50,787 nucleotides of DNA from Lysobacterales bacterium CG_4_10_14_3_um_filter_64_11 (GCA_002782905.1 PFJA01000286.1:1-50787); one strand, 5' to 3'. Shown: positions 27,501-48,262, numbered from the stretch's first letter. The notes: a model not told the origin generated them from the sequence alone. Program-made: numbers and translations.

Positions 27501-27771
27501 GCAATGGATTTCATCGCCGCTCACTGCGGGCTTCGCCGCGAGTACCGGCCGAGCACGTGCAACAGCGCTCCGCAAAGCACGCAAAAGTCGAAAAATGTTC
27601 CCGATTGGCGTCGAATCCTTGGCGTCGTTTGCGTCCTTCGCGAAGCCAATGCGTTTCAAGGCCACGATGGGTTTCGCTCCGCGCTACCCATCGCGCCGGC
27701 TGTGTTAGGCTCTTTCGCCACCAGCCGGCGATATTCTGTGCCGGAAACCGACGCACTACCGGGAGACAGCC

Positions 27772-28647
27772 ATGATCCGAACCACCCTTGCCGCCGCGAT
27801 GCTCGTCACACTTGCTGCCTGCTCGCCATCGGGTGAGCCCACTGCCAGCACGGAAACGGCGCCTCAGGCCAGCACGGCTGCCGCCAAGCCCGCGCAATCG
27901 CCGCTGGACGCTGCGCTTGCCGGCAACTGGCGCGACCCGGCCAATGTCGCGCGCGACGGGTGGCGGCATCCGGCGCAGACTCTGGCATTTTTTGCCGTGA
28001 CACCCACGCAGAGCGTGATCGAAATCACCCCCGGCGGTGGTTGGTACACCGAGATTCTGGCGCCGATGCTGCGCGACAACGGCCATTACATCGCCGCGGT
28101 GATGGACCCGGAAAGTGCCACCAGCGAGGGTGCCAAGGGCTACTATGGCAAGCAGATCGAAACCCTGAAAGCCAAATTGGCGAGCGCGCCGGAAGCGTAT
28201 GGCGCGCCGGAGATTCGCACGTTTGATCTGGCCAATCCGGTATTTGGCGAGCCCGGTTCGGCCGATGTGGTGCTGACCTTCCGCAATGTACACAACTGGC
28301 AGCGTTCGCAAACGGCCGAGGTGATGTTTCAGGGGTTCTTTGCCGTGCTCAAGCCCGGCGGCACCCTGGGTGTGGTCGAGCATCGTGCCAATGGCGATGT
28401 TGCCGCCGGCGATGCGTCGGGTTATGTCGGCCAGGATCAGGTGATTGCCATGGCCACAGCAGCCGGCTTTGCGCTGGAAGCGGCGAGCGAGATCAATGCC
28501 AACCCGGCCGATGGCAAGGACCACGAGGCTGGCGTGTGGAGCCTGCCGCCGGTGCTGCGTCTGGGCGACAAGGACCGCGAAAAGTATGCCGCAATCGGCG
28601 AAAGCGATCGCATGACCTTGCGATTCCGCAAGCCTGCCATGCAATAA
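27772..28647 (+). CDS. lipoprotein-leader class I SAM-dependent methyltransferase-fold protein (COG4798-like)
   Basis: Lipobox LVTLAAC after a GGGAGA RBS. It has a methyltransferase-like core (VIEITPGGGWYTEIL..., VLKPGGTLGVVEH). Confidence 0.8.
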   Translation: MIRTTLAAAMLVTLAACSPSGEPTASTETAPQASTAAAKPAQSPLDAALAGNWRDPANVARDGWRHPAQTLAFFAVTPTQSVIEITPGGGWYTEILAPMLRDNGHYIAAVMDPESATSEGAKGYYGKQIETLKAKLASAPEAYGAPEIRTFDLANPVFGEPGSADVVLTFRNVHNWQRSQTAEVMFQGFFAVLKPGGTLGVVEHRANGDVAAGDASGYVGQDQVIAMATAAGFALEAASEINANPADGKDHEAGVWSLPPVLRLGDKDREKYAAIGESDRMTLRFRKPAMQ

Positions 28648-28653
28648 GCTGTT

Positions 28654-30435
28654 TCACACCGGCGCCGATACCTCGCCCGTCTGCAAACGCCACAACGCGG
28701 CGTACGCGCCGTTGGCCGCGAGTAGCTGCGCATGGCTTCCGCTTTCGCTGATCCGGCCGTCATCGATGACGTGAATGCAGTCGGCGTGGCGCACGCTCGA
28801 CAGGCGATGAGCGATGATCAGGGTGCTGCGTCGATGGGCCTGGCGCAGCAACGAGCGTTGAATGGCGGCTTCGGTTTCGTTGTCCACCGCCGAGGTGGCT
28901 TCATCGAGCACCAGCAGCGCCGGTTCGCGGTACAGCGCACGCGCCAGTGCGATGCGCTGGCGCTGGCCGCCGGATAATTGGCTGCCACGCTCGCCGACCG
29001 GGTTGTCGTACCCGTTTGGCAACGCCACGATGAACGCATGCGCCTCGGCGGCACGCGCCGCCGCCTCGATGCGCGCGCGGCTCGCCAGCGGGTCGCCATA
29101 GGCGATGTTGTCTGCCACGCTGCCATCGGTGAGAAAAGGCTCCTGTGCGACATAGCCGATGGCTCGGCGCAGCGCGATCGGGTCGATCTGGCGGGTGTCG
29201 ATGCCATCGAAACTTATCACGCCGCGATCGGGTTGATGAAAGCGCAGCAGCAACTTCAACGCGGTTGATTTGCCGCTGCCGGTGGCGCCCACCAGCGCCA
29301 CGCTGGCGCCGGCCGGTATCCGCAGCGTGAAATCATCGAGTACCCGCTGCGCACCATAGGCAAAGCACACACCAGCAAACGTGACCTCACCGCGTACCGG
29401 CTTGGCCAGCGCCAGCTCACCGGGTGTGGCCACCGGTATCGCCAGCAAGGCGAATACGCGCTGCACCGAAGCCATGGCGCGGTTGTACAGGTCGGTGATG
29501 TCGGCCAGGTGGGTGAGCGGCCACAGCAACCGTTGGGTGAGGTACACCAGCGCCGAGTAGCTGCCGACACCCAACTCGCCGCGCAGGGTCAGCATGCCGC
29601 CGTACAACAACGTGGCGACAAACCCGAACAGGATCGCAATGCGGATCACCGGCGTGATCGCGGCGGAAAAACGGATCGCCGCGACATTGCGCGCACGGTA
29701 TTCATCCGACGCTGCCGCCAGATGCGCGGCCTCGAAACGCTCGGCGGTATACGCCTGGATCGTGGCCATGCCGCCGAGGTTGTTGGCCAGCCGCGCCGAC
29801 AGGGTGCCGGCAGCCTCGCGCATTTGCGCGTAGCGTGGTGCCAGACGGCGCTGGAACCAGAACGCGCCAAACACGATCAGCGGCACCGGCAACAGCGCCA
29901 GCACTGCCAGATTGGCGGTGAGCACGAAGAAAATGCCGCCGACCAGCAGCGACGACATGAACACCTGGATCAGCTCATTGGCGCCGGTGTTGAGGAAGCG
30001 TTCGATCTGGTTGATATCCTCGTTGAGTACCGCCATCAGCCGGCCGCTGCGGGCGCTGGTAATGGCATCTGGCGGCAAACGTTGCAAGTGCTCGTAGCTG
30101 TTTTGCCGCAGCACGTGTTGCAGGTCTTGCGCCAGGTTGCGCCAGCGCACCGCATACAGATACTCGAACAACGACTCCAGCGCCCAGATCGCCACGGTCA
30201 GGCCGACCAGCACCAACAACTGCTGCATCGGATCGGGCAAACCCAAGCGCGCGATGAACGATTCGCGCTGATTCACCACCACATCCACCGCCACACCGAT
30301 CAGCAGTTCGGGCAGCACATCGAATAGCTTGTTCAGTGCCGAATACAGGCTGGCCAGTACCGCGCTGCGGCGAAACGGGCGCGCATAACGAAACAGTTCG
30401 ACCAGCGGATGGCACTGCGGCAGGGCGTTGCTCAT
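28654..30435 (-). CDS. ABC transporter, fused permease/ATPase (MsbA/exporter type)
   Basis: Six-TM exporter domain followed by Walker A GATGSGKST, signature LSGGQRQRIALARAL and Walker B LLVLDEATSAVD. Start set at MSNALPQ (ATG 30435). The 808-aa track ORF is an artefactual upstream extension. Confidence 0.88.
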   Translation of the reverse strand: MSNALPQCHPLVELFRYARPFRRSAVLASLYSALNKLFDVLPELLIGVAVDVVVNQRESFIARLGLPDPMQQLLVLVGLTVAIWALESLFEYLYAVRWRNLAQDLQHVLRQNSYEHLQRLPPDAITSARSGRLMAVLNEDINQIERFLNTGANELIQVFMSSLLVGGIFFVLTANLAVLALLPVPLIVFGAFWFQRRLAPRYAQMREAAGTLSARLANNLGGMATIQAYTAERFEAAHLAAASDEYRARNVAAIRFSAAITPVIRIAILFGFVATLLYGGMLTLRGELGVGSYSALVYLTQRLLWPLTHLADITDLYNRAMASVQRVFALLAIPVATPGELALAKPVRGEVTFAGVCFAYGAQRVLDDFTLRIPAGASVALVGATGSGKSTALKLLLRFHQPDRGVISFDGIDTRQIDPIALRRAIGYVAQEPFLTDGSVADNIAYGDPLASRARIEAAARAAEAHAFIVALPNGYDNPVGERGSQLSGGQRQRIALARALYREPALLVLDEATSAVDNETEAAIQRSLLRQAHRRSTLIIAHRLSSVRHADCIHVIDDGRISESGSHAQLLAANGAYAALWRLQTGEVSAPV

Positions 30436-30501
30436 GACGAGGGTGGGCCTTGGGTCGGGGTTGGGCAGGCACGCTGCGGTGGTGTGCCGTAGAATACGCG
30501 A

Positions 30502-31047
30502 GTGCTGGTCGCTCTCAACAAACCGTATGGCGTGCTGTGTCAGTTCACTGACAGCAGCGCGACTGCGCGCCCGACGCTGGCTGGCTTTGGTTTGCCGCCA
30601 GGGATTTACGCCGCCGGGCGCCTGGATATCGATTCCGAAGGCTTGTTGTTGCTCAGTGACGACGGCAACCGTATTGCGCAGATCAGCTCGCCGCGATTCA
30701 AATGGCCGAAGACCTATGTGGTGCAGGTCGAGGGCACGCCCAGCGCCGAGCAGATGGCCGCACTCAAGGCCGGCCCGGTGCTGAAGGATGGGCCGACCGA
30801 GGCGGTTCGCGTGCAAGTGCTGGCGCATCCGCCGGAATGGTTGTGGCCACGCGATCCGCCGGTGCGCAAACGCAAAACCGTGGCCGACCATTTCATCGAG
30901 ATTACCATCCGTGAAGGGCGTAACCGGCAAGTGCGCAGGATGACAGCGGCGGTGGGGTTGCCCACCCTGCGCCTGATCCGGATCGCCATTGGCCCGTATC
31001 GCCTCGATGGCATGCAGCCAGGGCAGTGGCGCAGCGAAGCCGAGTAG
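30502..31047 (+). CDS. rluE: 23S rRNA pseudouridine synthase E (RsuA/RluE family)
   Basis: ALNKPYGVLCQF...GRLDIDSEGLLLLSDDG catalytic-Asp motif. About 180 aa with no S4 domain, which fits RluE. GTG start. Confidence 0.85.
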   Translation: MLVALNKPYGVLCQFTDSSATARPTLAGFGLPPGIYAAGRLDIDSEGLLLLSDDGNRIAQISSPRFKWPKTYVVQVEGTPSAEQMAALKAGPVLKDGPTEAVRVQVLAHPPEWLWPRDPPVRKRKTVADHFIEITIREGRNRQVRRMTAAVGLPTLRLIRIAIGPYRLDGMQPGQWRSEAE

Positions 31048-31078
31048 GCGGCGCAAACAAACGCCAGCACAGGTGCGC

Positions 31079-31840
31079 ATGGCTGACTTCGCCGATCACT
31101 TTTCCGCACATGCCGCGCACTACGCCAGCGCACGGCCGTGTTATCCCGACGCCCTGTTCGCGTGGCTCGCGCAGCACTGTGCAGCGCACGATCTGGCGTG
31201 GGATGCCGGTTGCGGCAATGGCCAGGCCAGCAGCGCGCTGGCCAAGCATTTCACGCACGTGTATGGCAGCGATCCAAGCCGCCAGCAGATCGCACAGGCG
31301 CCGGCGCATCCACGCGTTCGCTATGCCGTCGAAACAGCGGAAAACTGTTCGCTCGCCGATGCCAGTGTCGATCTGATCAGTGTCGCGCAGGCCTATCACT
31401 GGTTCGCGCAAACGCGGTTCTGCGATGCAGTGCGTCGCGTCGCACGCCCCGGCGCGCTGCTGGCGATCTACAGCTACCAGCGTTCGTCGGTAAACGCAGC
31501 GGTCGATGCCCTGTTCGAACATCTCTATCACGACGTGCTCGGCCGGTACTGGCCGGCGCAGCGCGTGCAGGTTGAAACGGGGTATCGCGAGGTGTGGTTT
31601 CCGTTTGCCGAACTGCACGACATGCCCGTCTGGCAGTTGCGCTGCGATTGGACGTTGCCGCAGTACCTTGCCTACCTGCGCAGTTGGTCGGCCTGTCAGA
31701 CGTGCCTCGCTGCCACCGGCAACGACCCGTTGCACGCCATGCAACCTGCATTTATCCAAGCCTGGGGCGAGCCGACCCGCGTGCGCCGGGTGGTCTGGCC
31801 ATTGAATCTGCGGGTCGGACGGATTGCTGCGTCGGGTTGA
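31079..31840 (+). CDS. class I SAM-dependent methyltransferase
   Basis: Motif I LAWDAGCGNGQAS and post-I/II blocks (DLISVAQAYHWF, RPGALLAIYSY). Start set at MADFADHF (ATG 31079). Confidence 0.8.
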   Translation: MADFADHFSAHAAHYASARPCYPDALFAWLAQHCAAHDLAWDAGCGNGQASSALAKHFTHVYGSDPSRQQIAQAPAHPRVRYAVETAENCSLADASVDLISVAQAYHWFAQTRFCDAVRRVARPGALLAIYSYQRSSVNAAVDALFEHLYHDVLGRYWPAQRVQVETGYREVWFPFAELHDMPVWQLRCDWTLPQYLAYLRSWSACQTCLAATGNDPLHAMQPAFIQAWGEPTRVRRVVWPLNLRVGRIAASG

Positions 31841-31857: not shown

Positions 31858-32074
31858 GCCTGCCCCCGACTTGATCTGGGGCAGGCTCCTGAAATTGCGC
31901 CTTGAAGCACCCCTGGAGCCACTGTGTCGCCCGCCGGGGCAAGCCCGCTTTTCTGCGGCGGCCGGCCAGCCGGCGAACGAACTGGCGAAAGTGCTTCGCG
32001 CGCAGGTGCACTCCCACAAGAGCCGGTCACCCACGTACAAGTAGCCGACCCTGTGGGCGACTGCATGCAGCGAA
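31858..32074. repeat. cluster of REP-type modules (TGTGGGAGC...GCGAA family and a TTGATCTGGG module)
   Basis: Module 31858-31889 (GCCTGCCCCCGACTTGATCTGGGGCAGGCTCC) resembles 43271-43303. Module 31970-32020 is roughly 80 percent identical by eye to the reverse complement of 43216-43266. Module 32050-32074 (CCTGTGGGCGACTGCATGCAGCGAA) resembles 41626-41651. Confidence 0.5.
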
Positions 32075-32081
32075 ACCCGCC

Positions 32082-32915
32082 CTACAACCAACGCGCGCTA
32101 GTCACCCGCTCGCGTTGCTCCAGATCGAGCGCGGTGCACACCTCGACAAAACCGTGGGCGGCGAGCAACGCGCGCACCGCCTCGCCCTGCGTCCAGCCGT
32201 GTTCCAGCAGCAAGTAGCCGCCGGGCGTGAGGTGCGACGGCGCATCGGCGATGATGCGGCGGATCGCGTCCAGGCCGTCGTCGCCGGATGCCAGTGCCAA
32301 CGCCGGCTCGAAGCGCAGATCGCCCTGTTGCAGATGCGGGTCGTCCGCTGCCAGATACGGCGGGTTGCTGACGATCACGGTAAAGCGCTCGCCGGCCAAC
32401 GGCGTCAGCCAATCACCGTGACGAAACACCACGTTGCCAATCCCCGTGGCGGTGGCGTTGCGTTGCGCCACGGCCAAAGCATCGGTGCTGATGTCCACAG
32501 CGGTGACGTGCGCCGCGGGCCGTTCGCTGGCAATCGCCAGCGCGATGGCGCCGCTGCCGGTGCCCAGATCGGCGAGCCGGCCATCGCGCGCCAATCGCGG
32601 CAAGGCCAGCTCCACCAGCAACTCGGTTTCCGGGCGTGGGATCAACACCCCGGGCTGCACCGCCAGATCGAGCGTCCAGAAACCGCGCGCACCGATCAGG
32701 TAGGCGACCGGCTCACCGCCGATCCGGCGTTCAAGCAGCGCAGTGAACGCGGTTTGCTGCGCGACGGCCAGCGACTCGTTACCGTGCGCAAACAACCAGG
32801 CGCGATCACGGCCCAGCGCATGGCCAAGCAACAGCTCGGCCTCGAACCGCGGCTGTGGCCCGGGCAATCGCGCTGCTGCCTGTAGCAGCGCGATGTCCAG
32901 CCGCCACTCAGTCAT
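32082..32915 (-). CDS. prmC: release-factor glutamine N5-methyltransferase (PrmC/HemK)
   Basis: Blocks GEPVAYLIG...F, LIPRPETE and [10 protein letters not shown], plus the catalytic NPPY. The start ATG (32915) overlaps the upstream ORF stop by 8 nt (ATGACTGA). Confidence 0.88.
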
Positions 32916-35900
32916 GCTTGGTTGCGGTTGAATCGGTCGGCACGGGCGATGCGGCCGGCTTGCGTGCCTGCGACAGCCAGACGCCGCCGCTGCTGAAACA
33001 TTGCCAGCCCCAGCGCAGCCAGCCGAGCAACGCGTTGGCCAGCCACAGTGCCCACAGCAACACGGCGGCCTTGTACGCCCACAGCGGCAGCGTCCAGGCG
33101 CTCGCCACCGGCAACTCGCCGTTGGCACTGCGGTCATGGAACCATTGCAACACACTGCCACTGGAGCCATTGCCACGCACGCCCATGTCCGGGCTGCCGA
33201 GCAGGCCCGCCGGCACCGCCAGCACCAGGCTCAGCAACGCCGCCACGCTGAGCACCAGCAGCAGCACCTGGCCCAGGTTGAAGCGCAGTGGCTGCGCGTG
33301 CTCGACCGGCAGGCGCGCACGCTGACCCAGTGCCAGCAGCCAGCCGGCGACAATCAGTGCGGCCCACCAGGAAACCGTGGCGAACCCCAGCCCCAGCAGC
33401 AACCACTGTGGCCAGCGCAGTGGCGTGCCGCTCCAGCGCCCGAGCACCGGCGCCAACAACGCCAGCAGCGCCAGCTCGCTCCACAGCAGCACCGCCGGCC
33501 CGATCTGCGGCCCGCCGGTCAGCAGCAGCCAGCGATCATCGGGCAAGACCAGTGACAGTTGAATGTCGGCCACCGAACGCCCAAGTTGCAGCGCCGCCGT
33601 GCGCAAGGCAAAGCCGCTGTCGCGATTCTCGCGCCAGGCGACTTGCACCGTTTGCATGCCATTGCGCACCGGCACGGTGACCGCACCATCGGCCAGCAGC
33701 AGTGGCAGCGCGACGCCATCGATCGCCAACGACTGCAACTGGGCACCTGCCGGCAACGGCAGGCGCAGTTCACCGGTACGGGTGGCGCGCACGATAAACG
33801 CCAACTGCTGGTCGCTGGCGCGCTTGCCGGGGTTGGCGCGCAATTGCAGGTTTTCGATCACCTGATCGTTGCCCTTGATCGCCGCGGGGCGGTTGATCGC
33901 CAGTTGCAGTTGCTCGCCCGGCAGCGGCAGGAAGTGCCAGTAGCCGCCGTCGTCGATCACGCCTTGCTGATCCAGTGCCAACGGCACACCCTGCGCGCTG
34001 GCGTGCAGCAGCGGGCTCACCGCCACATCCCAGCGCTCGCTCAGGTCGGTGCGCTTGCTGGCTTGCAGGGTCAGCGTTGCCGCCGGGTTCAACTGCGAAC
34101 TCCAGGTCACCGCGTTGCTGCCGGCAGCCATCGCCACCTGCGCCACGCCATCGGCAATCGGTGGTGCCTCGCCGATGATCGTTTCGCCGGCCAGCAACGG
34201 CACCGCAATGCTGAATCCGGCATCGGCGGGTGCCAGCCGCAGCACCCGGGTGTCGAGCAGCCACTCGCGGTCGAAGCGGAAACTGCGCACCACTTGCACG
34301 AACGCCGGTGCCTGCACCGTAGCGCGGGTGTCATCGCTGCTGACGGTGGCGGCCAGCGGCGGCGTCAGGCTCAGCGTGTTGCCGAGCAGGCGGCCGCGAT
34401 CCAGCCCGGCAATGCCGAAGCCGGGCGCCTGCACGCTGACCCGTGCCGGTTGCTCGGTAAAATGCAGTCCGAGCGGGCCGCCCTGCAAACGATAACGCAG
34501 CAGCACGGAATGGGCGCCGCGCGCGACCCGCACACGGGCGGTGCCAGCGACCCCCAGAACTGCTGGGGTGGCGCCATCCAGCGACACCGCCGACAGGCTG
34601 CCGGCATCGAGTCGTGGCAGTGCCAGCACGCCATCGGCCAATGCTTGCACCTGCAAACGCGCGCTCAGCTCGCGTGCGCTCGCCTGCACTTCGGCCAGCT
34701 CGATGGCGAGGCAGTTCGTGCCGCAGCGCGGGTCGGGCGCGAGCAGGCGGGCACGCAATTGATCGAGTAGAGCCGCATCGGGGATCGTGCCCTGTGCCTG
34801 TGCCGCACTGGGCGCCGCGAGACTGGCCGAAAACGCCAGCACCACGACCAGCATGGCCGCACTCGCGCCGGCCGTGGAGCGGCTGGCCTGCGGCATCGCG
34901 GCAGCCGCGCGCAATGCCGGCAAGCCGCGCAGCAACTGCCACAGCAAGGTCGCCAGCAACACCACCGACAGCAGCCGCCACAGCGCGGTCAGCCACGGCG
35001 GCGAGACCATGATGCCAAGCGCGTCGTCGGGCAACAACGGCCCGGCCCAGCTCAGGGTGTGTTGCCGCCAGTGCCACGCCGGCATTGCCGAACCGGCCTG
35101 CGGAATGGCGTCATCGGGGTAGCGGAACAAGTCTTCAACGCTGATGTGCGATCCGCTGACGGATAGGCGTTCCAGCGTGTCGCTGGCGGCGCTGCTGTTG
35201 GCCTTTGCCGGCCGCGGTGGTGCCGGGGTTGCCGGCGCTGGCGCCTCCATGGCCATCGGCATTGCGTCCTCAAAGCGTGTGGCTTCGTCCGGCGCCGTCG
35301 CACGCCTGGCGCTGACATACGGTTGCATGTCGGTTGCGCCCACCTGCACCGTGGCGCGTTCCAATTGCGGATGCAGCGCCAATCGCAACTGGCTGGCCGC
35401 GAACGGCAAGCCCAGCAACACAATGCCGGCCAGCACGGCGCGTTGCAGCCAGGCGGTGCGCTCATGCCACGGCCCCGCTGCGGTCAGCCGCAACACCACC
35501 GCCAGTGCCAGCGCGATCAACAACGTGATGCGCGGTGCTGACGGTTCGTGCCAGACCAGCAGCACGTAAGCAAGCAACAATCCGGCGCTGGGCCAGCGGC
35601 CCAGCCGCCAGCCCAGCAATACCAGCAGGCTGCCGAGGAACAGATCGAGCAGGGTCCACGCATCCCACCAACTGCCCCAGGCGCGTTCGGCACCGAACGC
35701 GGCGAGCAGGCGATAGCCCGGCGGCAGATTGAGTAAGACATCGGCGCTGTCGAACGGTTGCGCCCAGCCGCTGCCGGCGCTGCCGGCAGCAATCCGTGCC
35801 TGCGCCTGCAACTGGGCTGTTTGCGTGCGCAGCTCCACCCCCGCGCTGGCGTTGCTGTCGCCGGACGTGACCAACAGTTGGTCGGTGCCGCTGCGCACGC

Positions 35901-37113
35901 TCTGCAGCTGCCATGGCGCGCGCATGTCCAGCCGGCGCAGGCTACCGATGTCGCCGCTAATCTGGTCGCTGATGCTGTAGCCGGCGCCGTCGAAATCCAG
36001 CCACAGTGCGCGTTGCAGATGCAACTGCGACGGCCGCGATTCGGGCAGGCCACGCTGGCGCACGCTGACGGTGGCGGTGTCGCGCGGCTCAATCAGATAG
36101 GTTGGCCAGTGCGCCGGGTCGATCTCGCCCCATGCCGCACGGCCATGACCGGGAAACAGGGTGTCGATGACGCTGGCCCAATCCGGCATGATTGCTTGTT
36201 GTGGATCAAGGGCGCGCAATCCCTCCAGTTGCGCGATCCGAAATTGCGTCATTCCAGCAAACTGCACGACCTCTTGTGGCGGCCATGGCGCCGGCAGCGC
36301 CGGCACCTGCAAGGTGCTCAGCGCACCCGCTGCGCGCGCGGCGAGCAGCACGTCGTGCGTCCCCGGCTGCACCTGCACCAACAGTGTGCCATCGGCCAGC
36401 ATGCGGGTGCTCAGGCCACCAGCCATCGCCAGCAGGGTGTAGCCCTCGGGCAGAACCCTGCCGACGCTGATTTCGCGTGGCCGCCCGGCCACCGACAACT
36501 GAATCCAGGTGCTCAGCGTCGCCGGCAGACCATCATGCAGCAGTCGCGCCACATTAATCTGCAGACTGTCGGCCTCATAACGGGTGCTGTCGCCAAATGC
36601 CAGCGTGCCGTCATCGCTGCGCTGCACCGCGAGCACATCGCGGCCATCGACGCGCAGCGTCAGCAGGGCAATGGCTGGCGGCAACGCCAGCTCGGCCGGG
36701 CGCTGGTTCCACACGATGCGGCCGCTCAGGCGATGGCTGCCGGCATCCAGATGCACCATCGGCGTGCCGTTGCGCAGCAGCACGGGCGCCGCGCGACCAT
36801 CGACGATCAGGCTCTCCGGCTGCCAGCGCGCATCGCCAGGTAGCGGCACCCAGTCCGCCGCGACCATCTCCCAGCGCTGCGCAAAGCGTGCGCCGTTGCC
36901 ATCGACTTCAAGATCGAGCACGCCGGGCCAGCCACACGCTTTGGCGTTGCCGCTGATGCGCACGCTTGGGCACAGCTCGCGCTCGTGTCCGTGCAGCACC
37001 CAGCCGGTCCAGTCGCGCAGCGCCGGTGGAATGGCGATATCACGGGGCGCAGCGGTCAGCGACGCCGCCAGGGCAAGCAATGCCAGTACCAGTAAAACCC
37101 GTATCGTGCGCAT
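32908..37113 (-). CDS. 1401-aa polytopic envelope protein of unknown function, internally duplicated
   Basis: Uninterrupted 4206-nt ORF with genome-typical codon bias and a GGGAGA RBS. It has a signal peptide (aa 1-22) and TM clusters at about aa 484-580, 706-770 and 1196-1370, separating two roughly 430-460-aa soluble regions. I recognised no catalytic motif or family. Confidence 0.8.
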
Positions 37114-37217
37114 TCCCCATTCTCCCGGCAGGCGGCGATTGCCGCTGCCGAGAGTTTAGGGCTAAAGCGGGTGTCGGCGCAGCCACGCCGGGTCACGGCA
37201 TGGCTGCATAGCCAACG

Positions 37218-39893
37218 CTAAAGTCCCAGCCCTTTGGGTTGCTGCGCGGCCTTGAGCGCGGCACACAAACGAATGCCCTCTATCGACTGCGCCAAACGCC
37301 GTGGGCCACCTTCCACTTCACGCAGGCGCGGTTCGTGCCAGGTCGAGATTTCATCCGCTTCGGCATCCGAACAGCGCGCGAAGGCGTCGAGACGGACGAA
37401 ACCACCGCCCAGCCCACGCGGGCCTTTCTTCATCAGCGCGTCGTAGGCGCTGCGCAGCCACGCACGGGTATCGGCGCGCGATTCGCGCTCCCCCAGTTGG
37501 CTGAAGGCGACCAGAGTGAGCTCGTTGGAGCGGGTGTTCTCTTCCAGCGAAAGGGCGCGCGCCCGTGCCGCTAGCGCCGGGTCGGTGAAGCGGCCCAGCG
37601 CACTCAGCAACTGCCCGCGCAACACCGAGTCGGTGGACCCGCGAAAGGCGTTAGCCATGGCGTCAAACAGTGCGCCATCGCCGCCGACGGCGGCCATTTC
37701 CAGCGCCAGTGCACGCTGGTCGGGGGCAACCGCATCGGGCTTTAGCACACCATCGCCGTCAAGGCCGAGCACGGCACGGCCGCGTTGCGCGAGGGTGGCG
37801 CGCAGTGCTGGATCGTGGGCGAAATCGGCGAGCAGCCCTTGCAGGGTAGCGCGCAGCAAATGCGCGTCGTCGCTCTCGCCGGGCTTCGCGTCGAGGCCCA
37901 GGGCATCCAGACGCGGTTGATAGACGGCACGTACTTTGCCGTACAAGGCGGCGCGCTCGGCGCCATTGCGTGCCACGTGTTCGTCCATCCAGTACAGCGT
38001 GCTGATCGGGGCTGTCACCACCTGCCGCGCCGACGCACTCGCCAGCTTCGGCAACGCCGACAGGTAGCTCGTCGAATCGATCGCGCCGGCTTCAAATGCC
38101 GCTTCCAGCGAGTCGGCATAGACGCGTTGTTCGGTGTCGCTGAGCCGCTCGAATGCCGCATCGAGCCGCTGCTGGTCAGCGGCCGCCAGCGCAAAGCGGT
38201 AGTAACCGGCGGCATCGGCGTTTGGCATTAGCCAGTCCGGGCAGCTCGCGCTGTCCAGCGTGATGCGGGATTGCGTGTCGCTGATCAGACTGCATTGCGT
38301 CTTGACCGCTTCGCCCGCGCCATAACGCAGGCACAGCGGCACGCCCCAATGCTGGCCGGAGGCGGCGCTGGAGCCGAGCGGCAGATAGCGGCTCTGGGCG
38401 ATGTCCAGGGTGGGTGCCTTGCCGGCGTCGCAGTGCAGCGCAACGCGCAGGAACGGCACGCCGGGCTGATCGACAAAGCTGCTGAAAGCAGCAAACACGC
38501 CCTCGGGGTCATCGGACTTGGCCGCAACGGCAGCAATCAGGTCGCGGCTGGTGGCGTTGCCGCCGGCGTGCTCGACCAGATATTGATGGATGCCGGCGCG
38601 AAAGTTTTCGGCGCCGATGAAGTGCTCGAACATCGCCAGCACCGCGCCACCTTTCTGGTAGGTGATGCCGTCAAACGCCGCCGCGATTTCGGTGAAGTCG
38701 TCGATCGGCTCGCGCACCCGGCGCGTGCTGGCGAGGCTGTCGCCGCCCATTGCCGCCAGCGTGCCTTCCAGCTTGCCGCGCTCGCCGCCAAACTCCGGCT
38801 TGATTGCGCGAATGGTGCGCGTCGCCATCCAGGTGGCGAAGGCTTCATTCAGCCACAGGTCGTCCCACCACGGCATGGTGACCAGATCGCCAAACCACTG
38901 GTGCGCCAATTCGTGCGCGTGCACGTTCCAGTAAGCCTGGCGCAGGCCGGTGGGCGAGCGGTCGTTGGCGAACATCAGGCTGTCGCGGTAGGTGATCAGG
39001 CCGGCGTTTTCCATCGCGCCGGCGGCAAAATCCGGCGCCGCCAGGATGTCGAGCTTGTCGAACGGGTAGGCGATGCCGAAGTAGCGCTCCAGTTCCTCGA
39101 CGATCTGCGCGCTGTGTTCCAGCGCGTAGTGCATGTCCTTGCCGCGGCCCTTGGCGGCGACGCCGCGCAAGGCGAGCGGCGTGTTGCGCACCGCATTGGC
39201 GGGTATGTCCTGCCACTCCACAATGTCCCACGGCCCCACCGCGAACGCAATCAGGTAGCTCGGCAGGTTTTCGGTGCGGGCAAAGCGCAGCCGCTTGAAA
39301 CCGTCGGCGAGCTTGGTTTCTTCGACCAACCTGGTGTTGGCGACCGCATTTTGCCCTTGCGGCACGATCAGGGTGATGTCCCACGGCCGCTTGAACGCCG
39401 GCTCGTCCATGCCGGGAAACGCCAGCCGTGCACCGAGCGGTTCCATTTGCGTCATCACGTACGATTCGCCGGCATGTACCAGCTTGTAGGCGCCTTCGAG
39501 CTGGCGATTGAACGGCGCGCGGTATTCCAGCACCAATGTCGCCGGCCCAGCCGGAATGTCGGCCGCCGCGGTCAGTTCGATTACCCCCGACACGTGCACT
39601 TGCCTGGCGCTCAGACTGAGCGATTCGCCGCCTTTCGGGGTAATCGTGGCGTGGCTGATCTGCATGTCGCGGCCATGCACGAACAGCGTATGGGTGGCCT
39701 TGCTGAGTGTGCCATCGATGCGCGAAACGCCAGAGAAATCGTCGTCGCGCGGATCGATGCGCAGTTCGATGGCGAAGGCCTCCGCCTGCAAGGTGTCGGG
39801 CAGTTTGCCGCTGGGGACATCGGCCGCAGTCGCCGAAAAAGCGACTGCGCACAGGGTGGCCTGAGACAACAATGCAGTGAGGAAGCGAGGCAT
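37218..39893 (-). CDS. exported M1-family aminopeptidase (aminopeptidase N-like)
   Basis: GAMEN exopeptidase motif and HELAHQWFGDLVTMPWWDDLWLNEAFA (HExxH-x18-E). Signal peptide MPRFLTALLSQATLCAVAFSATAA. The ATG at 39893 is preferred because AAAGG lies 7 nt upstream; the alternative start is 39908. Confidence 0.9.
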   Translation of the reverse strand: MPRFLTALLSQATLCAVAFSATAADVPSGKLPDTLQAEAFAIELRIDPRDDDFSGVSRIDGTLSKATHTLFVHGRDMQISHATITPKGGESLSLSARQVHVSGVIELTAAADIPAGPATLVLEYRAPFNRQLEGAYKLVHAGESYVMTQMEPLGARLAFPGMDEPAFKRPWDITLIVPQGQNAVANTRLVEETKLADGFKRLRFARTENLPSYLIAFAVGPWDIVEWQDIPANAVRNTPLALRGVAAKGRGKDMHYALEHSAQIVEELERYFGIAYPFDKLDILAAPDFAAGAMENAGLITYRDSLMFANDRSPTGLRQAYWNVHAHELAHQWFGDLVTMPWWDDLWLNEAFATWMATRTIRAIKPEFGGERGKLEGTLAAMGGDSLASTRRVREPIDDFTEIAAAFDGITYQKGGAVLAMFEHFIGAENFRAGIHQYLVEHAGGNATSRDLIAAVAAKSDDPEGVFAAFSSFVDQPGVPFLRVALHCDAGKAPTLDIAQSRYLPLGSSAASGQHWGVPLCLRYGAGEAVKTQCSLISDTQSRITLDSASCPDWLMPNADAAGYYRFALAAADQQRLDAAFERLSDTEQRVYADSLEAAFEAGAIDSTSYLSALPKLASASARQVVTAPISTLYWMDEHVARNGAERAALYGKVRAVYQPRLDALGLDAKPGESDDAHLLRATLQGLLADFAHDPALRATLAQRGRAVLGLDGDGVLKPDAVAPDQRALALEMAAVGGDGALFDAMANAFRGSTDSVLRGQLLSALGRFTDPALAARARALSLEENTRSNELTLVAFSQLGERESRADTRAWLRSAYDALMKKGPRGLGGGFVRLDAFARCSDAEADEISTWHEPRLREVEGGPRRLAQSIEGIRLCAALKAAQQPKGLGL

Positions 39894-40069
39894 GAGTTTG
39901 CCTTTCATTCAGAGGGATCACGCCAGCATAACAGCGCCATGTGCATCAGCTATCGGCCGAAGGTCACGGGCGCAACTGCTGCGCGGACCGATGAGGCGAA
40001 CCGTATTCGATACCATTGGCTGATTGCCATGATATTTTCAATAGCTGGCGTGTATCAATTGGATGTTCG

Positions 40070-41162: not shown

Positions 41163-41579
41163 ATGTCGCTCAAAGGTTCCAACACCGAAAACAATCTGAA
41201 AGCCGCGTTCGCCGGTGAGTCACAAGCCAATCGCCGTTATCTGTATTTCGCGCAGAAGGCCGACGTGGAAGGCTACAACGATGTCGCCGCGGTATTCCGC
41301 TCAACCGCCGAAGGCGAAACCGGGCACGCGCACGGGCATCTGGAATATCTGGAGACCTGCGGCGATCCGGCCACCGGCCTGCCGTTCGGCAGCACCAGCA
41401 ACAACCTCAAGACCGCGGTTGCCGGCGAGACCCACGAATACACCGACATGTACCCGGGCATGGCCAAGACCGCGCGCGATGAGGGCTTCGATGAAATCGC
41501 TGATTGGTTCGAGACTCTGGCCAAGGCCGAGCGTTCGCACGCCAATCGTTTCACCAAGGCGCTGAACGAACTGGCTTGA
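41163..41579 (+). CDS. rubrerythrin-family diiron protein (no rubredoxin domain)
   Basis: ExxH diiron ligand pairs in the four-helix pattern: [27 protein letters not shown] and [18 protein letters not shown]. Confidence 0.88.
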
Positions 41580-41625
41580 CGCTGCGCAGCGCCCGCGCGT
41601 AACGCGCGCGTAACGGTGGTGTGTC

Positions 41626-41694
41626 CCTGTGGGAGCCAGCTCTGTCAGCGAACGGTTTCGCCAGTGGCTTCGTGCGCGGGCGCGCTCCCACAGG
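41626..41694. repeat. REP-type palindromic element
   Basis: Perfect 11-bp terminal inverted repeat: CCTGTGGGAGC (41626-41636) and GCTCCCACAGG (41684-41694). The internal ...CAGCGAA... is typical of TGTGGGAGC-type REPs. Confidence 0.55.
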
Positions 41695-41798
41695 ATTCGC
41701 GCGGCTGCTGCCATCGTGTCGCGCGCAGAGCCCGTCCCAGAAAGGGTCTGGGGTGGGCTTCTACAGCAACCGGCATCTGCGCCGGTACGAGGTAAGCG

Positions 41799-43142
41799 AT
41801 GAGCAACCCAACCACCACCGCGCGCGAAGGCAGCCTCGCTGCGCCCACCCGGCATCCGCTGGATTGGCAAAGCCCGGCGTTTTGGGATCAAGACGCGCTC
41901 GATCACGAACTGCAACGGGTGTTCGACCTGTGCCATGGGTGCCGTCGTTGCGTCAGCCTGTGTCACGCGTTTCCGACCCTGTTCGACCTGGTCGACAATT
42001 GCGAAACCATGGAAGTGGACGGCGTAGCCAAGGCCGATTACGGCAAGGTGGTGGAGCAGTGCTACCTGTGCGACCTGTGCTACCAGACCAAGTGCCCGTA
42101 CATTCCGCCGCACGAATGGAACATCGATTTTCCGCATCTGATGTTGCGCGCCAAAGCGGTACAGTTTCGCCGCGATGGCGCACCGGCGGCGGCCAGGCTG
42201 CTGTCGGCTACCAAGACCGTCGGCAAGCTGGCCTCGATCCCGGTGCTGGTGCAGGCGGTGAACTGGGGTAATCACAACAACGCCGTGCGTGCCGTGCTGG
42301 AAAGCACGCTCGGCGTGCATCGCGATGCCGCGGTACCCGAATATCACAGCGACAGCGCCGAGCAGCGCGTGCGCGACGACGACAGCGGCGAGCATGCCGT
42401 CGCCGCCGGCCCGACGCGTGGCAAGGTGGCGGTGTTCGTCACCTGCTATGGCCGTTTCAACCATCCGCAGATGGTCGAAGATCTGGTGGCGGTGTACCGC
42501 CACAACGGCATTGCGGTGAAGCTGATCCGCAAGAATCAGTGTTGCGGCATGCCCAAGCTGGAGCTCGGCGATCTCGACTCGGTCGATCGCTACAAGCGTG
42601 AGAATCTGCCCGAGTTGACGGCACTGGTTGAACAGGGCTGGGATATCGTGGCGCCGATTCCGTCGTGCGTGCTGATGTTCAAGCAGGAACTGCCGCTGAT
42701 GTACCCGGAAGACGCGCAGGTACAGGCGGTCAAGCGCGCGATCTTCGATCCGTTCGAGTACCTGATGCACCGCCACACTGCCGGTCAGCTCAACACCGAG
42801 TTTCGCCATGGGCTCGGCAAGGTGGCGTGGCAGGTGGCCTGCCACCAGCGGGTGCAGAACATCGGCCCGAAGACCAGGCAGGTGTTGGAGCTGGTGCCAG
42901 GCACCGACGTTATCGCGATCGAACGCTGCTCCGGTCACGACGGCACCTACGGCGTCAAGAAAGCCAGCTACGCACTGGCGCGCAAGATCGCCAAGCCGGT
43001 GGAGACGCGGGTACAACAGGCGCAGGCGGATCATTTCACCAGCGACTGCGTGATGGCCGGCAACCACATCGCGCACGGCCTCGGCGATGGCCGCAGCGCC
43101 GAACATCCGCTCAGTTTGCTGCGCCGGGCGTATGGCATTTAG
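41799..43142 (+). CDS. (Fe-S)-binding oxidoreductase, HdrD/GlpC-like (two 4Fe-4S motifs plus CCG domains)
   Basis: Ferredoxin-type motifs CHGCRRCVSLC and CYLCDLCYQTKCP. It also has a C-terminal Cys-rich region (CCG motif NQCCGMP). Confidence 0.85.
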   Translation: MSNPTTTAREGSLAAPTRHPLDWQSPAFWDQDALDHELQRVFDLCHGCRRCVSLCHAFPTLFDLVDNCETMEVDGVAKADYGKVVEQCYLCDLCYQTKCPYIPPHEWNIDFPHLMLRAKAVQFRRDGAPAAARLLSATKTVGKLASIPVLVQAVNWGNHNNAVRAVLESTLGVHRDAAVPEYHSDSAEQRVRDDDSGEHAVAAGPTRGKVAVFVTCYGRFNHPQMVEDLVAVYRHNGIAVKLIRKNQCCGMPKLELGDLDSVDRYKRENLPELTALVEQGWDIVAPIPSCVLMFKQELPLMYPEDAQVQAVKRAIFDPFEYLMHRHTAGQLNTEFRHGLGKVAWQVACHQRVQNIGPKTRQVLELVPGTDVIAIERCSGHDGTYGVKKASYALARKIAKPVETRVQQAQADHFTSDCVMAGNHIAHGLGDGRSAEHPLSLLRRAYGI

Positions 43143-43147
43143 GCGCG

Positions 43148-43306
43148 GTGGGCCGCATCTCGCGCGGCAACGTCCGATCGCGCATGAGGGGCCCCACGGG
43201 AGGAGCAGGTCAACGCTCGTGGGAGCGCATCTCGCGCGCGAAGCGTCTCGCCGCATTGTTCGCCGGCAGAGCCTGCCACAGGCTTGATCTGGGCTCGGCT
43301 CCCACC
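43148..43306. repeat. two tandem REP-type units
   Basis: GTGGGCCGCATCTCGCGCGGCAAC and GTGGGAGCGCATCTCGCGCGCGAAG are direct-repeat cores. Each is closed by a (G)GCCCCAC or GCTCCCAC inverted end. They belong to the same family as 31858-32074 and 41626-41694. Confidence 0.5.
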
Positions 43307-43362
43307 GCAACACTGGCTTGCATCAGCATCACGCGCTCAGCACAACCAAACCGAGGAATCGC

Positions 43363-43944
43363 ATGAACGCTTTGTCACGAACCGAGCTCTACACCCTTGA
43401 AGCCTATGCCAGTGCGCGCGCTGCATTTCGCGCCACAGTGATTGCGCACAAGAAGAACCGCCAGGTGCCCCTGGGCGAGCACATCACCCTGCTGTTCGAG
43501 GACCGTCTCACCATCCAGTATCAGGTGCAGGAAATGCTGCGCATTGAGCGCATCTTTGAACCCGAAGCCATTCAGGATGAGCTCGACACCTACAACGCCC
43601 TGATCCCGACCGGGAGCAATCTCAAGGCGACGATGTTGATCGAGTTCCCCGACGAGGCGCAGCGCCGCATCGAGCTGGCGCGGCTCGGCGACATCGAGCA
43701 CAAGGTTTATGCCGAAGTGGAAGGCTTGGGTCGCGCGTTCGCGATTGCCGACGAGGACATGCAGCGCAGCAATTCCGAAAAAACCGCGGCGGTGCATTTT
43801 CTGCGCTTTGAGTTCAGTGCCGAGCAGATTGCCGCGCTGCGCGCCGGTGCCGAGTTCGGCTTCGGCATCGATGATGAGCGCCTGCGCGTAGGCCATACCC
43901 TCAAGCGCGATACCCGCGCGGCATTGCTTGCGGATTTTGGCTGA
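43363..43944 (+). CDS. DUF3501-family protein
   Basis: 193-aa ORF, MNALSRTELYTLEAYASARAAFRATVIAHKKNRQVPLGEHITLLFEDRLTIQYQVQEMLRIERIFE... I recognise it from memory as DUF3501, a family usually adjacent to a rubrerythrin and an Fe-S protein. Confidence 0.7.
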   Translation: MNALSRTELYTLEAYASARAAFRATVIAHKKNRQVPLGEHITLLFEDRLTIQYQVQEMLRIERIFEPEAIQDELDTYNALIPTGSNLKATMLIEFPDEAQRRIELARLGDIEHKVYAEVEGLGRAFAIADEDMQRSNSEKTAAVHFLRFEFSAEQIAALRAGAEFGFGIDDERLRVGHTLKRDTRAALLADFG

Positions 43945-44085
43945 GCGATTGCCATCGCCCATTTTCGCGACGCGCCGTGTCGGTACCGGTTGTGGCGGGG
44001 TGTTGGCAAAAGCCGCGCCATGTGCACCCGCGCGGTGGGTTTTGAACGCGCTACGATGACCGCCTCGCGGCAAGCGCGGTAGCCA

Positions 44086-45147
44086 ATGCGCAAGATCCTC
44101 CACATCGACATGGACGCGTTCTACGCCTCGGTCGAGCAACGCGACGACCCGGCGCTGCGCGGGCGGCCGGTGGTGGTGGCATGGCGCGGTGCACGTTCGG
44201 TGGTGTGCGCGGCTTCGTACGAGGCGCGGCGCTTCGGCATCCGTTCAGCGATGCCGGCGCTGCGCGCCGAGCGGCTGTGTCCCGATGCGGTGTTCGTGGC
44301 GCCGGATTTCAGCCGTTATCGCGCGGTGTCGCGGCAGATCCGGCACATCTTCCTCAGCCATACGCCGCTGGTCGAGCCGTTGTCGCTGGATGAGGCGTAT
44401 CTGGATGTCAGCGACTACCGGCACGGTCTGTCCAGCGCCACCGCGGTGGCGCAGGCGATCCGCGCGCAGATCCGCGAGGTCACTGCGCTGACCGCATCGG
44501 CCGGGGTGGCGCCGAACAAGTTTCTCGCCAAGATCGCTTCGGACTGGCGCAAGCCTGATGGTCTGTTCGTGATCCGGCCGGCACAGGTCGAGGCGTTTCT
44601 CACGCCGTTGCCGGTGGGCCGCATCCCCGGCGTCGGCACGGTGACCCAGGCCAAGCTGGGCGGGCTGGGCATCGCTACCGTCGGCCAGTTGCGCGCGTGG
44701 ACGCAGCGCGATCTGCAAGCGCACTTCGGCCGTTACGGGCAGCGTCTGCACGAACTGGCGCGCGGCATCGATGCGCACCCGGTGTGCGTGGATCGACCGA
44801 CGCAATCGATCTCGGCGGAGGACACGTTTGCGCAAGACCTGCCCCTGACGGCGCTGCAACCGCCATTGCAGGCATTGGCCGAACGCGCGTGGCAAGCCGC
44901 CAGCAAGGAAGCGCGGGTGGGCCGCACGGTGGTGCTCAAACTCAAGACGGCCGACTTCCGAACCCTCACTCGCAGCCACACCGCGGACACACCGCCAGCT
45001 GACTTCGCACAATTCATGGCGATTGCCAAGGCCCTGTGCCGGCGTGTCGAATTGCCGCACGACACGCGGTATCGCCTGCTTGGCGTCGGCCTGTCGAATT
45101 TTGTCGCGCGCGACGCGCTGCCGCCGCAGGCAGAATTGTTCGATTGA
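44086..45147 (+). CDS. dinB: DNA polymerase IV
   Basis: Y-family motifs MRKILHIDMDAFYASVEQRD, SLDEAYLDV and GVAPNKFLAKIASD. Confidence 0.93.
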   Translation: MRKILHIDMDAFYASVEQRDDPALRGRPVVVAWRGARSVVCAASYEARRFGIRSAMPALRAERLCPDAVFVAPDFSRYRAVSRQIRHIFLSHTPLVEPLSLDEAYLDVSDYRHGLSSATAVAQAIRAQIREVTALTASAGVAPNKFLAKIASDWRKPDGLFVIRPAQVEAFLTPLPVGRIPGVGTVTQAKLGGLGIATVGQLRAWTQRDLQAHFGRYGQRLHELARGIDAHPVCVDRPTQSISAEDTFAQDLPLTALQPPLQALAERAWQAASKEARVGRTVVLKLKTADFRTLTRSHTADTPPADFAQFMAIAKALCRRVELPHDTRYRLLGVGLSNFVARDALPPQAELFD

Positions 45148-47257: not shown

Positions 47258-48262
47258 TTAGCGTTTGCCGCGCAGGCGGTCAAACAACCCGGTTTTTGCC
47301 ACTTGCTCGGGTTCGGGCTCGGGCACCCGCTCGACGTGTGCGAACCCGGAGGCGAGATTGGCATTGACAAAATCAATGACCTCGCTGACCGGCGCTGTGC
47401 TCAGCTCGGCAATCTCGGCAATCGTCGCCGGGCCCTTCATCATCGTCGTGGCGATGCGGAAATGCTTGGGGAACTCGCGTTCGATCTGTGGCCACTTGCT
47501 GAGCGAGAAGCGCTCGTCCAGGGAATACCCTTCGGCCAGTGTGCCTTCGCCCCCAACCAACGCAAACAACCAGCGCAGCCGCGCCATGGGTTGCGCGCCG
47601 CCTTTTTTGACCACCTCGGCGAAGGCTGCCGCATCGACGGTGCGCAGCTCGTGCGCAGGCATATCGCCCTGGCAGAAAGGCAGCAGTGCCTTGAGTGAGC
47701 TCGGCCCGAAATACACCCGCGTTTCCGGATCGAGCACCAACGGCTCGGCGCCACTGCGGGTAATGCAAACCGGCTGCTGCAACGCGCCCGGCACCAGATA
47801 ATCGCCCAGACGCGGCGCGCGTGGCGGTGGCGGCGGTGCTGGCGCCGCCGTGGCGGGGGCGGCAGCGCTGGCAACCGTGGCGGCTTGCTGCGGTATCGCA
47901 GCGGTGGGTGCCGCGGCGACCGCTTTCGCCGGTGCCGATGACTCGGCCAGCGGCGCGGCAGCCTGCACGGTGCGCATCAATTCGCAGAGCGCGTCTGCGC
48001 TCACCGGACGCGCCAGGCGCAAACCCGGTTCACTGCGGCTACCGGCAGTCAGCGGGATGACGGTTTGCTCGCCCTGCCGCGCACGCAGCCAGGTCATTTG
48101 CCCGTAAATCGAGTCGATATCGACCACCAGCACGTCGGCACTGCGTTCGTCACGCAATTGAAATGCGCGCCCAGTGCTGGCGTTGGCTGCATCAAATAGC
48201 ACGTGTAATCCATCGCGCTCGTCCGGCTCCATACCGGTAAAACACCATCCTCGCATGAACAT
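47258..48262 (-). CDS. hypothetical protein with a long Ala/Pro-rich linker, unknown family
   Basis: Start chosen at MFMRGW (ATG 48262) because GGAGGGGGA lies immediately upstream. Layout is an N-terminal module of about 100 aa, an A/P-rich low-complexity linker (aa about 105-160), then a C-terminal module of about 170 aa ending in a helix-rich segment (PATIAEIAELSTAPVSEVIDFVNANLASGFA). Confidence 0.6.
   Translation of the reverse strand: MFMRGWCFTGMEPDERDGLHVLFDAANASTGRAFQLRDERSADVLVVDIDSIYGQMTWLRARQGEQTVIPLTAGSRSEPGLRLARPVSADALCELMRTVQAAAPLAESSAPAKAVAAAPTAAIPQQAATVASAAAPATAAPAPPPPPRAPRLGDYLVPGALQQPVCITRSGAEPLVLDPETRVYFGPSSLKALLPFCQGDMPAHELRTVDAAAFAEVVKKGGAQPMARLRWLFALVGGEGTLAEGYSLDERFSLSKWPQIEREFPKHFRIATTMMKGPATIAEIAELSTAPVSEVIDFVNANLASGFAHVERVPEPEPEQVAKTGLFDRLRGKR

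Follow-up and report, generated by a model that had tools for sequence, protein, structure and literature searches.

A large unnamed family of internally duplicated bacterial envelope proteins with a predicted internal signal peptide

Introduction

The cytochrome b-c1 precursor FbcH of Bradyrhizobium is a membrane polyprotein whose internal signal peptide is cleaved, yielding two subunits. Ost1 (ribophorin I), subunit 1 of the eukaryotic oligosaccharyltransferase (OST), consists of a pair of similar beta domains in the lumen and a single membrane helix; it has no catalytic role and has been proposed to hold glycosylated peptide (PMC7226087). In this study, we analyzed a 50,787-nucleotide stretch of DNA, referred to here as the window, from Lysobacterales bacterium CG_4_10_14_3_um_filter_64_11 (GCA_002782905.1 PFJA01000286.1:1-50787). 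The gene under study occupies positions 32908-37113 on the minus strand, starts with ATG and is the longest open reading frame (ORF) of its region, encoding 1401 amino acids (aa) plus the stop codon. An earlier note made from the sequence of the window had described its product as an unclassifiable, duplicated envelope protein. We report that the gene is an authentic member of a very large unnamed envelope-protein family of Gram-negative-type bacteria. Its design is unusual, with two fused modules that each carry a predicted signal peptide and with a conserved site at the internal one.

Results

Full-length homologs in several phyla

Homology searches returned more than 1000 homologs. The best 120 were all 1356-1456 aa long, covered 97-100% of the query at 37-100% identity, and were annotated as 'hypothetical protein' in every case. 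The named organisms among them were mostly Rhodanobacteraceae (Dyella, Rhodanobacter, Dokdonella, Tahibacter and Rudaea). A HMMER search with a profile of the C-terminal module (C-module), exhaustive over 1.84 billion representatives, retrieved 2,695 clusters (50% identity) at E<=1e-3 and 1,621 at E<=1e-30, and the cluster members listed were mostly 1,330-1,500 aa long. We also scanned one genome per species, which gave 43 loci from at least six phyla. In this survey, full-length genes were found in Gammaproteobacteria (Xanthomonadales, Chromatiales, Methylophaga, Oceanimonas, Thioalkalivibrio, Thiospirillum and Ca. Venteria) and beyond them in Desulfobacterota, a Chthoniobacteraceae genome (Verrucomicrobiota) and a Spirochaetales metagenome-assembled genome (MAG) of the Spirochaetota. 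The genes in Acidobacteriota and Myxococcota MAGs were partial, cut by contig ends.

The ORF could in principle be an artefact: it might have arisen spuriously in GC-rich DNA, or an error of assembly or sequencing might have merged two adjacent paralogs. The high GC content of the region (0.67-0.69) favors spurious long ORFs, and the second half opens with its own signal peptide. Against this explanation, thousands of independent full-length homologs of equal length and order occur in isolates and MAGs of several phyla, the confidence of the AlphaFold2 (AF2) models is high, and the junction region, including the helix at 706-729, is conserved. The fusion by assembly error that the earlier note had named as the case against its own reading is excluded because these thousands of full-length homologs exist, and we give an artefact of any kind practically no probability.

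Several interrupted homologs were inspected. P0136 and P0176, considered as split relatives, were fragments without a start Met, and P0268 lay on a 2.9-kb contig with a frameshift inside the helix 706-729. In two MAG contigs the homolog was broken, into two ORFs of 523 and 877 aa in L024 (3157-7148) and by a frameshift inside the helix 706-729 in L046 (1-2664). Both look like sequencing or assembly frameshifts and not like natural versions with two genes, as neither falls at the internal signal-peptide junction. A deltaproteobacterial member of 1565 aa (L039, 946-5640) carries a much longer low-complexity insert between the helix 706-729 and the internal signal peptide; this shows that large insertions are tolerated in the cytoplasmic loop.

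Tandem duplication

We compared the family profile with itself using hhalign. Residues 6-551 aligned with 757-1307 at a probability of 97.1% (E 4.9e-11; reciprocal E 2.3e-9). A profile of the C-module alone matched most members in two or three stretches, the N-terminal module (N-module) coming second, which places the duplication before the radiation of the family. Judged from these comparisons, the protein is an ancient head-to-tail tandem duplication with two modules in one chain, and the old duplication suspected from reading the translation is thus borne out.

The 37-residue motif LP..SL.[VI]DG...P.L...V.[LV]..G.H occurs three times in the protein (Table 1), and its regular expression was matched in 0 of 2000 shuffles. 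These three copies of the repeat described in the earlier note stood, but a weaker copy placed at 221-258 had no support beyond a very weak hhalign match (probability <1%). Residues 810-879 also aligned with 1098-1165 (probability 73%), which relates the first beta block of a module to its third. The comparison of the hairpin and last helix between module 1 (661-740) and module 2 (1300-1385) was not significant (E 0.04), so the correspondence of these elements is drawn from their order and charge.

Searches for known families

The protein gave zero matches in Pfam-A, NCBIfam and the PDB sequences, even at E<=1. Twenty-nine diverse members were scanned singly and yielded no recurrent Pfam family (none at E<=0.1) or NCBIfam family, and their joint profile found nothing real among the PDB sequences. 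The PADLOC anti-phage defence models did not match, and the protein contains no HExxH, Walker A, GxSxG or CxxC motif. The literature search found no description of the family, no domain model and no solved relative.

Since the tests for membership in known families failed or gave no clear match, we rate the family as outside the known kinds, with common folds as its building blocks. The earlier conclusions that the protein cannot be placed by sequence and lacks a catalytic signature therefore hold. The label 'unclassifiable' is accurate for the sequence and needs the caveat that the periplasmic arms resemble Ost1/ribophorin I at the fold level.

Predicted structure

Two AF2 models were built. 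The model of aa 1-1200 had a mean predicted local distance difference test score (pLDDT) of 84.2 and a predicted template modelling score (pTM) of 0.70, and that of aa 691-1401, covering the C-module, had values of 86.4 and 0.56. Each soluble region is modelled as three beta-sandwich blocks. In the N-module arm, short helices at 30-47 precede blocks at 50-172, 183-297 and 338-479, and the arm is followed by helices at 488-520, 528-543, 548-580 and 582-604. Residues 608-654 are disordered in the model; a beta-hairpin (683-704), a helix (706-729) and a second disordered stretch (735-778) come next. The blocks of the C-module lie at 802-917, 938-1041 and 1058-1200, followed by helices at 1209-27, 1234-45, 1249-67 and 1275-1305, a beta-hairpin at 1321-43 and a helix at 1344-74.

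Internal signal peptide and proposed processing

Residues 730-770 of the query comprise a basic stretch, a hydrophobic core (748-766) and AQAQ, which stands before the conserved start of module 2, [FYI]PxxxLLxxLxxRLLxxPxCxPxC. Among 116 diverse full-length members, a small-x-small site was present in 114 and a strict AxA in 70, at most 12 residues before the invariant Pro778 (control windows, 9 of 116). The site usually ends 1-4 residues ahead of Pro778. The 15 residues preceding have a mean net charge of +2.6, and the median length of the uncharged run is 19.5 residues. Like the N-terminal signal peptide, the segment is poorly conserved (majority frequency 0.35 vs 0.38), and its pLDDT was below 50 in both models. 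It thus has the positive n-region, hydrophobic h-region and small -3/-1 residues by which signal peptides are recognized. On these sequence features, aa 730-770 is a family-wide internal Sec-type signal peptide with a signal peptidase I-type site, newly recognized here. The earlier note had taken residues 750-770 for an internal signal anchor ending in AQAQ; the segment was correctly seen, but it behaves as a signal peptide of the cleavable type rather than a plain anchor.

Because the signal peptidase I-type site of this second signal peptide is kept across the family, signal peptidase I may cut the precursor at about aa 770 to give two chains. The N-chain (about 80 kDa) and the C-chain (about 68 kDa) produced in this way would remain together as a pseudo-heterodimer. 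If the cleavage is real, the family would add a case that is widespread in bacteria to the polyproteins processed by signal peptidase.

Membrane topology and conservation

A Kyte-Doolittle scan gave hydrophobic peaks at 4-22, 487-505, 529-547, 556-578, 710-730, 748-766, 1207-25, 1238-56, 1283-1301 and 1348-66, reproducing the layout of hydrophobic segments proposed earlier. The net charges of the loops were averaged over the 29 diverse members. Loops 501-509 (+1.7), 544-557 (+2.3), 730-747 (+2.4), 1226-36 (+2.2) and 1263-79 (+1.9) and the C-terminal tail (+2.6) were positive and were assigned to the cytoplasm, and loops 521-528 (-0.3), 579-600 (-0.4) and 1306-43 (-1.1) were negative and were assigned to the periplasm. 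We infer that both arms and both hairpins are periplasmic and that the short basic loops and the C-terminus are cytoplasmic. One scheme is applied to both modules because of this charge pattern and because both arms share the side of the exported N-module arm. Hydrophobicity, models and loop charges together support the earlier description of the protein as membrane-embedded and facing the periplasm.

In this scheme, each module would start with a signal peptide, continue into a periplasmic arm of about 430-460 aa that opens with a Cys pair, and enter the membrane with a helix running from out to in. A short helical pair with both ends in the cytoplasm would follow, either re-entrant or a very tight double pass (510-543 with the tip HEPxAPR; 1234-1267 with the tip GLGFSTxSW). 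The next helix would run from in to out and lead to the periplasmic beta-hairpin (683-704; 1321-1343), and the last helix would return from out to in (706-729; 1344-1374) and end in a basic cytoplasmic tail. The variable Ala/Pro linker would be an insertion peculiar to module 1, placed ahead of the hairpin.

The most constrained part of the protein was the Trp-rich last helix, 1344-1374 (majority frequency 0.79; 52% of positions at least 90% conserved), which terminates in the invariant W1365-L-R-W-G-W-Q-C1372. The loop 1306-1343 (PDMxxxGNGSS...W..DR) and helix cluster 2 came next. D490 is an invariant polar residue inside the first helix of cluster 1, and E523 (HEP), Q583 (PQLE), R1226, R1265 and Q1282 are invariant or nearly so. 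The protein has five Cys residues (48, 60, 797, 801 and 1372). In the alignments, the Cys pairs noticed earlier at the openings of the soluble regions proved to be invariant (C48/C60) or nearly so or better (C797/C801), and the Ala/Pro-rich linker was confirmed at about 601-660 as disordered in the model and the least conserved part. The strongly conserved RxxWLDFDGxGY...D motif in the third beta block of the N-module had no counterpart in the C-module; it resembles acidic metal-binding (Ca2+) loops and may bind metal.

This arrangement raises the possibility of a transporter or energy-coupled conformational machine, following the logic of resistance-nodulation-division (RND) proteins and SecDF. 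The two modules would together make a pseudo-symmetric membrane domain, in which intramembrane polar residues and short re-entrant-like hairpins would link the passage of ions or substrate with motions of the large periplasmic arms. The internal duplication is in keeping with it, since in each half a hydrophobic segment leads into a large periplasmic domain and then a helix bundle, as are the invariant D490 within the first helix and the membrane domain as the most conserved region. The tips of the short helix pairs (510-543 and 1234-1267) are conserved, with positive loops on either side of each pair, and a stand-alone gene is compatible with a secondary system driven by the proton motive force. 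On the other side, none of the 29 members matched ACR_tran, MMPL, SecD_SecF, FtsX or other transporters in Pfam, and no transporter was among the top 50 Foldseek PDB matches of either model. The periplasmic domains are plain beta-sandwiches, not the alpha/beta porter type, and the re-entrant reading of the helix pairs is drawn from secondary structure and charge only. We regard a transporter as a serious but doubtful candidate.

The conserved loops may alternatively belong to an enzyme whose substrate, lipid-linked or polymeric, would be handled at the periplasmic leaflet of the inner membrane, with an active site formed by the acidic and polar motifs HEP, PQLE and PDM..GNGSS..DR near the membrane surface. 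E523, Q583, M1310, N1315, S1317 and D1327 are invariant or nearly invariant and lie in loops predicted at the periplasmic surface, which would suit such a site. The absence of a recognizable catalytic signature, of any enzyme family matched by sequence or fold, and of linked pathway genes argues against it, and we consider an enzyme quite unlikely.

Genomic context in relatives

We clustered all ORFs within 10 kb on either side of the gene in the 43 loci, all against all. No gene neighborhood conserved across phyla was found in these regions; the clusters contained only the ubiquitous PAS/GGDEF and ATP-binding cassette (ABC) ATPase families at variable positions, the ABC ATPase genes in 7 of the 43 loci. 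Outside Xanthomonadales, the neighbors of the family gene usually run divergently or convergently, or long gaps separate it from them. A Pfam scan of ten tightly spaced same-strand neighbors identified unrelated enzymes only. No conserved small partner ORF (35-200 aa) was detected. Apart from CspA in 4 loci, the candidates were artefacts of other frames or of the antisense strand at the conserved 3' end. As there is no conserved neighbor, the protein appears to act alone or with unlinked partners.

In the window, the gene lies between prmC and a gene for an M1 aminopeptidase (Table 1), and whether this linkage is conserved had been asked at the outset. It is conserved within Xanthomonadales but not elsewhere among the 43 loci, and is order-specific synteny, not a family-wide functional association. 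A Dyella genome whose homolog is 40% identical (L044) has an M1 peptidase gene nearby and the identical 8-nt overlap with prmC (12133 vs 12140). In the closest relatives, L001 and L002, an ORF about as long as the aminopeptidase gene (892-924 aa) stands directly before the family gene, and in L003 an ORF of 898 aa lies two ORFs upstream.

The CspA cold-shock genes mentioned above lie within 1.5 kb of the family gene in L021 (4947-5150), L022 (14264-14464), L024 (7995-8219) and L026 (2911-3165), on differing sides and strands. Their proximity is probably due to chance because csp genes are so common.

Fold resemblance and possible function

Both models were compared with the PDB using Foldseek. 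OST subunit 1, from yeast and human, was the top match for both, at a probability of 1.0 (6ezn_A, E 1.2e-9 and 1.7e-7), and 7oci_A, 8agb_E, 6c26_1, 6s7t_E and 8pn9_E were further matches to it. The OST chains were confirmed as RPN1/Ost1 by searching the PDB sequences with human RPN1. Integrin calf domains and the N-terminal sandwich of M1 aminopeptidases and leukotriene A4 (LTA4) hydrolase (154-177 columns, root-mean-square deviation (rmsd) 4-6 A) followed.

We tentatively favor, at somewhat under even confidence, a self-contained, non-enzymatic, pseudo-heterodimeric platform in the inner membrane that binds a ligand on its periplasmic side. An extended periplasmic ligand, polypeptide or glycan, would be held beside the outer face of the inner membrane by the two beta-sandwich arms, which resemble Ost1/ribophorin, and the strongly conserved C-terminal membrane domain would supply an interaction or gating surface. 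The lack of a catalytic motif, of a conserved neighbor and of cytoplasmic domains favors a self-contained, non-enzymatic role.

Several points weigh against a platform. Its function is assigned by analogy only, with low certainty. The best-conserved membrane domain, D490 and the hairpin tips suit a transporter or an enzyme over a passive scaffold. Foldseek TM-scores to Ost1 were low (0.2-0.3), and a viral structure library gave only generic beta-sandwich matches, in which unrelated proteins reached E 8e-8. No signal was obtained when the C-module profile was compared with human RPN1 by hhalign (probability 0.04%) or in the profile comparison with the N-domain of the neighboring M1 peptidase. 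Single-module or naturally split relatives were not found at the module boundary; short matches were contig-edge or frameshift fragments. Because unrelated viral proteins with multiple beta-sandwiches score so well, the match to Ost1 may be generic, and the low TM-scores, the viral matches and the negative profile comparisons make the resemblance a fold-level lead rather than evidence of family membership. The Pfam, AlphaFold and Foldseek checks suggested in the earlier note thus ended with no Pfam family and with a resemblance to Ost1 and the M1 N-domain at the fold level only.

For the same reasons, a true remote homolog of ribophorin I/Ost1, with an accessory role in a bacterial complex that glycosylates proteins or lipids or is associated with the translocon, is very improbable. 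Such a homolog would explain why OST subunit 1 is the best PDB match of both modules, but a sequence signal is missing, viral proteins give comparable E-values, and no STT3/PglB-type or other partner gene recurs around the 43 loci. The numbers of sandwiches and helices also differ, as set out below. If the Ost1-like arms were homologous rather than convergent, they would bear on the origin of the eukaryotic glycosylation accessory subunits.

We therefore rank the platform first, a transporter-like machine a close second and an interfacial enzyme third. A more specific version, an autonomous envelope machine of an unrecognized class, made as a polyprotein that signal peptidase would cut into two paralogous subunits, whose D490/re-entrant-hairpin domains would conduct or flip a substrate, and whose arms would handle this substrate and be bacterial relatives of the OST accessory fold, seems unlikely. 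Of the roles guessed at earlier (transporter, sensor or assembly machine), that of a sensor is unlikely because the predicted cytoplasmic loops are all short and no output domain is present.

Features of the gene and its neighbors in the window

The features of the protein and its adjacent genes are summarized in Table 1.

Table 1 Predicted features of the 1401-aa protein and adjacent genes, with positions in the window.
Feature	Position	Strand	Basis or remark
N-terminal Sec-type signal peptide (predicted), aa 1-22	37048-37113	-	Sequence, hydrophobic peak 4-22; comparable segment starts all members
N-module periplasmic region (predicted), aa 23-483	35665-37047	-	AF2 model, conservation
Repeat motif copy 1, aa 91-127	36733-36843	-	Regular expression
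RxxWLDFDGxGY...D motif, aa 368-383 (WLDFDGxGY, 371-379)	36004-36030	-	
Membrane helix cluster 1, aa 484-580; invariant D490, HEPxAPR 522-528	35374-35664	-	Hydrophobicity, alignment, model
PQLE exit motif (conserved) followed by the Ala/Pro-rich linker (variable, disordered), aa 581-660	35134-35373	-	Model, conservation
Conserved beta-hairpin 683-704 and final helix of module 1 706-729, aa 661-729	34927-35133	-	Alignment, model
Internal signal-peptide-like element, aa 730-770	34804-34926	-	Charge, alignment, low pLDDT in both models
C-module periplasmic region (predicted), aa 771-1200; helix with C797/C801	33514-34803	-	Models
Repeat motif copy 2, aa 832-868	34510-34620	-	Regular expression, hhalign
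Repeat motif copy 3, aa 1118-1154	33652-33762	-	Regular expression, hhalign
Membrane helix cluster 2, aa 1201-1374	32992-33513	-	Model, conservation
Variable positively charged C-terminal tail, aa 1375-1401, and stop	32908-32991	-	Charge, conservation
prmC (release-factor glutamine methyltransferase, about 277 aa)	32082-32915	-	ATG at 32915
M1 aminopeptidase, 896 aa, upstream gene on the same strand	37218-39908	-	Clear N-terminal signal peptide

The sequence GGGAGA lies about 10 nt 5' of the ATG of the gene. The start of prmC and the stop codon of the gene share an 8-nt overlap (ATGACTGA), suggesting translational coupling. The upstream M1 aminopeptidase is exported, judging from its N-terminal signal peptide (MKGKLMPRFLTALLSQATLCAVAFSATAAD). 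The surrounding genes in the window are chromosomal housekeeping genes (dxs, dinB, aceK, a sigma-70 factor, LysR and an ABC exporter).

The GC content over 32001-38000 is 0.67-0.69, and that of the flanks is 0.62-0.65. The protein is enriched in Ala, Leu, Arg, Pro and Trp (W = 3.7%), and the raised GC probably comes from its Ala/Leu/Arg/Pro-rich composition and not from a foreign origin, which is disfavored because the neighbors are housekeeping genes.

In the ABC exporter of 808 aa (28654-31080, minus strand), the ABC_membrane domain begins only at residue 247, and the N-terminal 240 aa or so had no Pfam match. Two long ORFs overlap on opposite strands at 41301-43313 (minus) and 41799-43142 (plus). 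The real gene of the pair is probably the plus-strand ORF (447 aa), in which a CCG cysteine-rich domain was identified, and the minus-strand ORF (670 aa), with no Pfam match, is probably spurious in GC-rich DNA. Further long ORFs without a Pfam match are located at 27772-28647 (plus), 27511-28644 (minus), 43375-44139 (minus) and 47258-48295 (minus).

Discussion

Proteins of this family are about 1,400 residues long, number in the thousands and are spread over at least six bacterial phyla. The family is one of the larger pieces of membrane-protein 'dark matter', and a domain model for it would link thousands of entries now annotated as hypothetical proteins.

Several described systems share parts of its design. 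A MacB/FtsX-type (type VII) ABC permease is not indicated, as FtsX matched neither the query nor the 29 members and an ABC ATPase neighbor is not consistent. RND transporters (AcrB, SecDF and MmpL) are likewise built of two homologous halves, in which a hydrophobic segment comes first and a big periplasmic domain and a helix bundle follow, and they have a conserved acidic residue in a membrane helix. The present protein differs from them in its fewer helices and all-beta periplasmic domains, and no RND profile (ACR_tran, MMPL, SecD_SecF, Patched) or fold was matched in Pfam or among the top 50 structures.

The N-domain of M1 aminopeptidases and LTA4 hydrolase (2GTQ, 4QHP, 3B7S) resembles one sandwich block over about 154-177 residues at an rmsd of 4-6 A, with 14-21% identity in the Foldseek matches to bacterial PepN. 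Unlike these enzymes, the protein has no thermolysin-like catalytic domain, no HExxH and no Peptidase_M1 match in Pfam.

Ost1/ribophorin I (6EZN chain A, 6C26 chain 1, 6S7T and 8PN9 chain E), the best structural match for both modules, may share with it the extracytoplasmic tandem beta-sandwiches followed by a membrane helix, and like it lacks catalytic residues. The Ribophorin_I profile (PF04597) matched neither the query (E<=1) nor any of the 29 diverse members (E<=0.1). Ost1 has two sandwiches and a single helix, whereas the present protein has three predicted sandwiches per arm and multi-helix bundles, is duplicated in one chain, and is bacterial and stand-alone with no OST partner nearby.

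FbcH is unrelated to this protein, also in function, and its cleavage has been demonstrated, whereas that of the present protein is only inferred. In both, the second part opens with an internal signal peptide, and FbcH thus offers a precedent for the processing proposed here.

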